From assembly GCA_964016885.1 (NCBI GenBank), contig OZ024753.1, forward strand, positions 34,472,001-34,536,000: a stretch of DNA of 64,000 nucleotides, given 5' to 3'. A model generated the notes under the pieces. It was not told the DNA's origin and searched no databases. It saw nothing but the letters and a program-made list of their open reading frames with translations. Position 1 is the first letter of the stretch, and each line of letters starts with the position of its first letter. This DNA comes from Eledone cirrhosa. Taxonomy: Eukaryota. A program made the position numbers and the translations under genes. Shown in pieces: positions 31,696-32,850 of this stretch.

Positions 31696-32850
31696 ATATT
31701 AAGTGTAATGAATTCTTTTACAATGGAATTAGCTCAAAAGGAAATATTCCTGAGCCGTGTATAAAAGTAATATATATGAGTAATATATATGATGAAACAG
31801 ATACCAACACATCTGTATTTATATTGCAAAAGAAAGTTAGCCAGAATGAAGAATATTAATTATTTTACCACAGTTCGTCCACATCGATTTAAAATAATAA
31901 ATCGACAAAAACTAGCTGCGCTGCCAAATGGCTATGATGTTTATACATATTTAAATTTCAAAGTCAAACCTGTTCAGTAGATAAGTTTAAACCTCAAAAT
32001 CCAAACATGTTTCGAGATGAATAAGTGTATAAGTGTAGGAATATCTTGCTACTGCTCTCCTCAGTAAACATCCAGAGACAATTGATAAGCTTCACTTCTA
32101 AATAATTTAAAAGACTGTGTGACGCACATGGGTTCACAGATTCAAGCTAGTCTCATAACCGTACTGCTAGAAATAACAGTCGCATATATGAGGCGAATTT
32201 CAGCTCGACGAAGAGCAGTTATATTAAGTGTAATGAATTCTTCTACATTCTGGCTAACTTTCTTTTGCAATATAAATACAGATGTGTTGGTATCTGTTTC
32301 ATCATATATATTACTCATATATATTACTTTTATACACGGCTCAGGAATATTTCCTTTTGAGCTAATTCCATTGTAAAAGAATTCATTACACTTAATATAA
32401 CTGCTCTTCGTCGAGCTGAAATTCGCCTCATATATGTGACTGTTATTTCTAGCAGTACGGTTATGAGACTAGCTTGAATCTGTGAACCCATGTGCGTCAC
32501 ACAGTCTTTTAAATTATTTAGAAGTGAAGCTTATCAATTGTCTCTGGATGTTTACTGAGGAGAGCAGTGGCATGATATTCCTACACTTATACACTTATTC
32601 ATCTCGAAACATGTTTGGATTTTGAGGTTTAAACTTATCTACTGAACAGGTTTGACTTTGAAATTTAAATATGTATAAACATCATAGCCATTTGGCAGCG
32701 CAGCTAGTTTTTGTCGATTTATTATTTTAAATCGATGTGGACGAACTGTGGTAAAATAATTAATATTCTTCATTCTGGCTAACTTTCTTTTGCAATATAA
32801 ATACAGATGTGTTGGTATCTGTTTCATCATATATATTACTTTTATACATA
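31696..32850. mobile_element. Non-coding HHR element with 525-bp circularly permuted unit: antisense block 31696-32243, sense block 32246-32850 (retrozyme/PLE-like)
   Basis: ATATTAAGTGTAATGAATTCTT at 31696 and 32221; CATTCTGGCTAACTTTC at 32246 and 32771. The blocks are reverse complements; (TA)n flanks. Confidence 0.8.
32550..32620 (+). ncRNA. Type I hammerhead motif (mirror copy at 31999-32069, minus strand)
   Basis: gttta-CTGAGGA-gag..ctc-GAAA-catg-TT-tggat. Palindromic stem III ACATGT; stem I is weak (GU-rich). Confidence 0.65.

Follow-up and report, generated by a model that had tools for sequence, protein, structure and literature searches.

What kind of element occupies positions 31695-32848 of the Eledone cirrhosa DNA analysed here (the window, 64,000 nt in length), and which enzymes copied which RNA to place it there? 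The interval consists of two head-to-head arms of one 525-nt unit devoid of an ORF, in which an earlier note, made from the letters alone, had seen a hammerhead-bearing repeat copied from a circular or multimeric RNA and then folded back on itself. On the sequence features described below, we consider it probable that the locus arose by one recent insertion, that of a 525-nt hammerhead unit lacking an ORF; the unit is likely a non-autonomous Penelope-like element (PLE) of retrozyme-like character, which the reverse transcriptase-endonuclease of an autonomous PLE would have copied into a (TA)n microsatellite.

The window is AT-rich, of animal type and dense in (TA)n arrays and transposon remnants. 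BLAST aligned the inverted arms (31770-32247 and 32372-32849) over 478 nt at 99% identity and recovered a direct repeat at a spacing of 525. We refer to the hammerhead-bearing strand as sense, an orientation also backed by the G-U asymmetry described below, and divide the unit on this strand into four segments, A to D (Table 1). Both arms span more than one full period and do so in different phases; the measured lengths, 1.05 and 1.15 units, agree with the ~1.04 (antisense) and ~1.15 units (sense) estimated earlier, and the segment orders (C'-D-A-B-C against A-B-C-D-A') bear out the statement that the arms traverse the unit junction and start at different points. The outcome is a partial tandem in which A and A', at a spacing of 525, form a short pseudo-LTR, and C and C' a repeat of 28 nt. 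A unit of 525 bp was recovered as a period, although not as a uniform one, the period being 525 or 512 because A', alone among the three copies of segment A, is without a 13-nt tandem duplication. The arms differ at three positions in D (3/372) and at one in C', and are identical throughout A-B-C (153/153 nt), a contrast between A-B-C and D that is not significant (Fisher p 0.56). The GC content of the unit is 0.33.

Table 1. Coordinates, in the 64,000-nt window, of the two-armed element, its parts and its diverged relative.
Feature	Position	Strand	Remarks
Diverged relative	28246-28398	+	~84% identity; separate 5'-truncated copy
Target-site duplication, left copy	31685-31699		15 nt, TATACATAAATATAT; last 5 nt also template-matched (microhomology)
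Minus arm	31695-32247	-	553 nt, 1.05 units; order C'-D-A-B-C; 3' end leftward
Tail (B+C)	31695-31757	-	63 nt, at minus arm 3' end only; starts with a CTC..GAG stem-loop
Minimal type I hammerhead, minus arm	31999-32069	-	core at 32064; predicted cut after 32004
Head-to-head junction	32241-32247		7-nt imperfect microhomology, 5/7 shared
Plus arm	32246-32848	+	603 nt, 1.15 units; order A-B-C-D-A'
Segment A	32247-32336	sense	
13-nt tandem duplication in segment A	32302-32327	+	present in the minus arm too; lacking in A' and the relative
Segment B	32337-32371	sense	
Segment C	32372-32399	sense	
Segment D	32400-32771	sense	
Minimal type I hammerhead, plus arm	32550-32620	+	predicted cut after 32615
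29-bp hairpin (predicted)	32609-32674	+	8 G-U pairs, no A-C mismatch
Second hairpin, kept in the relative	32699-32750	+	3/3 differing consensus pairs still pair (1 compensatory, 2 wobble)
Target-site duplication, right copy	32843-32857		15 nt; first 6 nt also template-matched (microhomology)

The hammerhead motif of the plus arm comprises a 5-bp stem I with three G-U pairs, a CUGAGGA core, GAAA, a GUU triplet, a 3-bp stem II with an opening G-C pair and a 38-nt loop, and a palindromic helix III. A G10.1-C11.1 pair and a palindromic helix III are among the listed traits of PLE minimal hammerheads, of which pairs on opposite strands 100-700 bp apart are already known (PMC4209133), and the element has both the G-C opening pair and the palindromic helix. 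The type I descriptor, which puts the cut where the earlier note had predicted it, after 32615, gave six matches in the 64-kb window, two in each of three inverted elements, and the core 14-mer occurs in the window only at 32555(+) and 32064(-). Among 20,000 dinucleotide shuffles of the unit, a loose match arose three times and a match of the observed stringency never. The earlier assignment of one hammerhead to each unit is therefore sound as far as the motif goes, which is present in each arm and was matched by 0/20,000 shuffles; it is less so as regards a working ribozyme, Rfam giving no hammerhead and the catalytic fold being predicted to be unfavourable. At gathering scores, the sole Rfam match in the whole window was a 5S rRNA, and the 17 matches returned for 27000-34000 at E<=10 all lay under the gathering score and included no hammerhead, a silence that says little because the neighbouring PLE hammerhead motifs in the stretch scanned were missed too. 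When constrained, the catalytic fold is predicted at +1.6 kcal/mol against -13.6 kcal/mol for the free fold, whereas the constrained folds of two neighbouring PLE hammerheads reach -7.2 and -6.3 kcal/mol; the pairing probability of stem I is 0.000 in seven of seven contexts. Free folds of the hammerhead regions were not above shuffles in four of five cases, both copies in the 525-nt element included. Self-pairing of helix III as a dimer is predicted at -8.2 kcal/mol. A head-to-tail run with two or more consecutive complete hammerheads is absent at the locus and, with one motif per strand, the locus is unable to release a monomer itself; this copy is likely a dead end.

Folding predictions point to a hairpin of 29 bp whose pairing would take up helix III together with the cut site and the 3' strand of stem I. 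This hairpin is strand-specific (-22.4 kcal/mol sense vs -1.9 antisense; z -6.9), its stability was equalled in two of 1500 control windows, both draws from one locus, and its bias for G-U over A-C has a binomial p of 0.008, figures to be read in the light of its having been picked post hoc, once the fold had been seen. The bias may reflect selection or, alternatively, A-to-G change on the sense RNA. In this model the hammerhead would need to dimerise or be assisted by a protein in order to cut, and the downstream hairpin is predicted to hold it off. The fold of the entire unit stands apart from shuffles (z -4.8; in a separate run, z -3.9 for the linear sense, -2.4 for the antisense and -3.5 for the circular form), with five of six control regions at +1.0 to -1.6 and the sixth, a PLE 3' region, at -3.5. 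The unit RNA is thus predicted to be highly self-paired, and a read-through RNA of the locus would form a hairpin of ~480 bp.

That the unit lacks a credible ORF, as the earlier note had it, was confirmed in several ways. The longest ATG-started frames encode 27 aa (sense) and 63 aa (antisense); a Pfam scan of three frames of the element returned nothing significant (best E 0.092), and neither did a tblastn search with 106 PLE proteins, all of the Hydra type (best E 0.024). An RT or GIY-YIG ORF between pLTRs, a trait of autonomous PLEs, is absent, and no DNA match was found within the window between the unit and the PLE remnants it contains. A 20-nt motif common to the unit and its relative has no exact match in GTDB genomes and the plus arm none in phages (blastn), as expected of an animal repeat. 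There are no tRNA genes in the window and therefore no tRNA-derived SINE head.

The element is placed in a (TA)n stretch, with a cluster of inverted insertions on one side and a Tc1-like transposase remnant on the other, and each arm has its 3' end directed away from the centre, towards (TA)n. A search of both strands of the whole window placed the 15-mer TATACATAAATATAT at 31685 and 32843 and nowhere else. The case for a target duplication is good but not conclusive: the flanks are of low complexity, and 11 of the 30 positions of the duplication are template-matched as well. A match of 5-6 nt to the template at each end would be expected if the target ends annealed to the RNA. The tail sequence, folded at 32325-32402, gave a z of -2.8, with two of 200 shuffles equally good; its 63 nt compare with extensions of ~50-90 nt in neighbouring inverted elements. 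A stem-loop common to all neighbour tails was unsupported, a fold clearly above shuffles being obtained in one of six, the unit's tail only, and the alignment of this tail with those of the neighbours is weak (54% mean identity). At the central junction the mosaic of arm-specific positions is crossed, 32243 being of the plus-arm type and 32245 of the minus-arm type, so that a single crossover is insufficient; the pattern suggests a repaired heteroduplex or chance mutation.

The window holds one relative of the unit, at ~84% identity. The earlier note had placed it at 28090-28390; the part at 28246-28398 is solid, and the extension to 28088 is weak by comparison with shuffles (5/300 as good in a post hoc window, 41/300 in a wider one), leaving the homology of 28088-28245 to the unit unproven. 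A further candidate, 27780-28080, was rejected, 124 of 300 shuffles being as good. An 11-nt direct repeat, TATATAAATAT, flanks the relative at 28235-28245 and 28394-28404, and because this repeat is its own the relative is best read as a truncated insertion in its own right. It adjoins PLE remnants, and its 3' end falls within ~5 nt of the 3' site of the plus arm. These ends speak against the variable permutation that had been proposed: the plus arm and the relative stop within ~5 nt of one site, and the minus arm merely adds the 63-nt tail. The arm phases fit two fixed start sites combined with 5' truncation, the usual PLE pattern, rather than random permutation.

Five other inverted elements of the window (4974, 18944, 28604, 29228, 62547) are built in like manner: each is bordered on one side by a (TA)n run, and on the opposite side the sequence extends ~50-90 nt past the arm. 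Three of these are near-perfect palindromes with loops of 4, 5 and 6 nt, an indication that fold-back is a real route in this genome, and the tail-less arm is contained in the tailed arm in all four that could be resolved. The elements at 4974 and 29228 share their hammerhead type with the 525-nt unit, as judged by the type I descriptor.

The core of the earlier proposal, a hammerhead unit without an ORF copied from a greater-than-unit RNA, most likely by PLE enzymes, accords with arms of 1.05 and 1.15 units and with the PLE insertion marks. Simple fold-back, the route that it had named, fails at this locus: whichever arm is taken, its sequence is not found whole within its partner, so that either two-ended priming or fold-back with a central deletion or template jump is required. 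In the first of these routes, which stands about an even chance of being correct, the enzymes of an autonomous PLE would act in trans on a greater-than-unit RNA and nick the two strands of the target with a stagger of 15 nt; the 3' ends so exposed would pair with the element RNA, each at one of two fixed start sites separated by 63 nt, and be extended into cDNAs slightly longer than one unit along the greater-than-unit template; and the two cDNA ends would be joined via the central microhomology. The two 3' phases would then represent the two fixed start sites, and the 5' phases truncations. LINE-1 twin priming reportedly also leaves an inverted segment next to a direct one, with microhomology at their join and a single target duplication around the pair; the 525-nt element differs in having no poly(A) and in that both its segments cover the same full unit, so that two passes or two RNAs would be needed.

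The amended form of fold-back, to which we assign a somewhat less than even likelihood, starts from a cDNA primed at the tail end and at least 1.3 units long, which would snap back and copy itself as far as the inner start site, the centre of the palindrome (~126 nt of the left arm) being deleted later through microhomology. The 4-6 nt loops in three of the five other inverted elements and the containment of the tail-less arm in all four resolvable ones speak for it, the mosaic junction is compatible with end-joining, and self-priming has also been argued for PLEs in a report that describes inverted pLTRs with an 8-10 bp duplication and in-trans mobilisation by pLTRs (PMC3846280). Against it, an extra deletion or template jump is required, the copied arm must in addition have shed the 13-nt repeat, and purified PLE protein has been found to cleave and extend both target strands (PMC11167929). 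Both routes fit this one locus; any other route appears improbable. As to the template, an uncleaved linear partial-tandem or multimer RNA is mildly favoured. A linear partial tandem of ~1.3 units suffices and fits both the blocked ribozyme and the in vitro data, in which synthesis by purified PLE protein is initiated inside the RNA, at a pair of neighbouring sites by which the tail is defined, and hammerhead cleavage is dispensable (PMC11167929). A 525-nt circle, a possibility that we rate a little below even, would account for the fact that each arm stops shortly after completing a lap. The matter is not decided by the 13 nt in which A and A' differ, because slippage is needed under either simple template; every simple model needs a slippage event or a heterogeneous template. 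The circle is central to the view of the element as a bona fide non-LTR retrozyme, in which a multimer self-cleaves at 32615, the monomers ligate to a 525-nt circle and a PLE enzyme laps it once before stalling; this we regard as possible rather than probable. Consistent with it, the arms stop just 28 and ~85-90 nt past one lap, both reading through the cut site, the unit is predicted to be highly self-paired (circular z -3.5) and helix III pairs as a dimer (-8.2 kcal/mol). Blocked ribozymes have been described in the circles of plant retrozymes and viroids, whereas in metazoans the ribozyme is free, certain mussel circles excepted (PMC7229834), and greater-than-unit copying from circles has been proposed for PLEs (PMC4209133). 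Yet two hammerheads occur on neither strand, the catalytic fold is predicted to be unfavourable, in contrast to those of the neighbouring PLE hammerheads, and A and A' differ by 13 nt inside one arm; purified PLE protein prefers uncleaved RNA, with no reads ending at its cut site (PMC11167929), and just one of nine Xenopus retrozyme dimers was cleaved in vitro (bioRxiv 10.64898/2026.07.22.740005). A bolder version, which we hold to be doubtful, combines the circle with two-ended priming: a 525-nt circle would be lapped once by the PLE enzyme from both ends of a staggered cut, the cDNAs, each entering at one of the two PLE start sites, would stall on their own hybrid, and the G-U hairpin would serve as a conformational lock, permitting multimers to cleave through dimerisation while shielding the circle. 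Were this so, the structure of the locus would directly prove the mobilisation of retrozyme circles by PLEs, and would supply a 0.5-kb substrate with which to settle the origin of PLE tails and inversions. That the unit is instead the plain pLTR of an autonomous PLE, locally rearranged, is quite unlikely. Autonomous PLEs have the same architecture and hammerhead type, pLTRs are the source of retrozymes (bioRxiv 10.64898/2026.07.22.740005) and the relative adjoins PLE remnants; nevertheless, both arms contain the C-to-D junction, the point where an autonomous element would run on into its ORF, so that the template was already ORF-less and a plain pLTR fails at this locus. Moreover, no coding trace was detected with the Hydra-type proteins tested, and the relative, flanked by an 11-nt repeat not shared with the unit, has the look of an independent insertion. 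Least likely of all is an effect of assembly, whether through collapse of a longer tandem array, leaving about one unit in each arm, or through a palindrome of chimeric origin: inverted and tandem PLEs do trouble assemblers (PMC8557442) and the window contains a run of N, but the arms differ by substitutions and an indel, are phase-offset and have a tail and a duplication, and a 2.4-kb tandem array (49126-51534) was resolved in the same window.

Non-LTR retrozymes have been defined as tandem type I hammerhead repeats expressed as circles (Cervera and de la Pena 2020, PMC7229834), and have since been argued to be non-autonomous PLE derivatives of 51-972 bp that are often monomeric (Li et al. 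2026, bioRxiv 10.64898/2026.07.22.740005). The present element resembles the metazoan members described in these two sources in its ORF-less unit with one type I hammerhead, its GC content below 50%, its predicted self-paired RNA, its target duplication of more than 4 bp (here 15 nt) and its length of 525 nt, which falls in the 51-972 bp range of Li et al. 2026; PLEs have been proposed as their origin and mobiliser. It departs from them in that the locus is without a two-hammerhead head-to-tail run, the unit is larger than the RNAs of 170-400 nt shown, the minimal PLE-type ribozyme is predicted to be blocked, the arms are head to head with a tail, and the circle is a prediction. With endonuclease-positive PLEs (Penelope/Poseidon, Neptune, Hydra) it shares the pseudo-LTR partial tandem, the inverted 5'-truncated copy and the one-sided tail, which together with a (TA)n bias are described as the PLE standard (PMC8557442), as well as the (TA)n target, the target duplication and the minimal hammerhead with a palindromic helix III (PMC8557442, PMC3846280, PMC11167929, PMC4209133). 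Unlike them, it has no RT or GIY-YIG ORF, its whole unit measures 525 nt, its tail is 63 nt long against the published 30-40 bp, and both arms exceed one unit with neither containing the other. Non-autonomous Chlamys PLEs such as MRC1 are likewise ORF-less PLE derivatives that make pLTRs and head-to-tail insertions; as far as they are described in PMC8557442, these are green algal, mostly without hammerheads, and similar at their 3' end to an autonomous partner, a similarity for which the 525-nt unit had no DNA counterpart in the window.

We accordingly file the element as a non-autonomous PLE derivative working like a non-LTR retrozyme, a new family of a described kind, and not as a retrozyme proper, because the two-hammerhead tandem is absent here and the circle is hypothetical. 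The exact combination of features is undescribed in the literature searched, and supplements or subscription papers may contain a description of it. Movement of ORF-less hammerhead repeats by PLEs has so far been argued from shared motifs, co-occurrence and phylogeny (PMC7229834; bioRxiv 10.64898/2026.07.22.740005). In this copy an ORF-less hammerhead unit bears the marks specific to PLE insertion, namely a tail, an inversion and a duplication within (TA)n, and the copy is likely a clean footprint of PLE enzymes acting in trans; its value lies in that footprint and in the predicted ribozyme lock, a blocking hairpin being unusual among animal retrozymes. The origin of PLE inversions and tails is still called open (PMC8557442), and a 0.5-kb cis-only element would be a handy substrate for testing how both are formed.

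The inverted element at 4974-8007 is a head-to-head PLE with a Hydra-type GIY-YIG remnant at 6260-6634 (Pfam; 96 tblastn alignments of PLE proteins) whose CxxC and CxH motifs, placed around E and N, are as described for the Hydra clade; its hammerheads, at 5061(-) and 7833(+), are well formed, its tail measures ~87 nt, and its junction has a small local palindrome (6240-6287). The inverted hammerhead element at 29228-31608 has motifs at 29330(-) and 31420(+) and a tail of ~86 nt that has a short motif in common with the tail of the former; another repeat sits in its centre (30198-30495, matching 44316-44616), and Hydra-type PLE proteins gave no match to it. Short palindromic (TA)n insertions with 4-6 nt loops and one-sided extensions lie at 28604-28921, 18944-19090 and 62547-62728, with related copies at 12340-12441, 24527-24672 and 40269-40337, and would provide a useful test of fold-back vs two-ended priming; Rfam microRNA matches at 28676-28776 were discounted because they merely reflect the palindrome. 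A broken PLE RT remnant on the minus strand (26281-27596) belongs to the protein group of the GIY-YIG remnant at 4974-8007 and is joined head to head with a plus-strand remnant (27511-27778) that by eye resembles a GIY-YIG C-terminus, the ORF remnant 27511-27775 having no Pfam family and no homologue; a decayed hammerhead-like motif follows at 27983 in this arrangement (26281-28225).

Beyond the right (TA)n flank of the 525-nt element, the adjoining Tc1-like transposase remnant (32932-34403; HTH_SB, E 7.5e-21) is broken near 33760 by a LINE-like 3' fragment. At 13706-13889, a solitary full-length 5S rRNA copy is followed 9 nt on by 56 nt identical to 34348-34403, a segment that sits just past a LINE-like ORF remnant, all of this amid microsatellite; this is a possible 5S/LINE-tail chimera, which we take to be SINE3-like. 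The run of N lies near 4.2-4.4 kb in the window. The array at 49126-51534 has a period of ~40 bp, and another at 55526-56260 has a period of ~32 bp; the latter originated in a portion of a dispersed repeat, ~190 nt long and abundant, of which many copies lie between 16900 and 57800.
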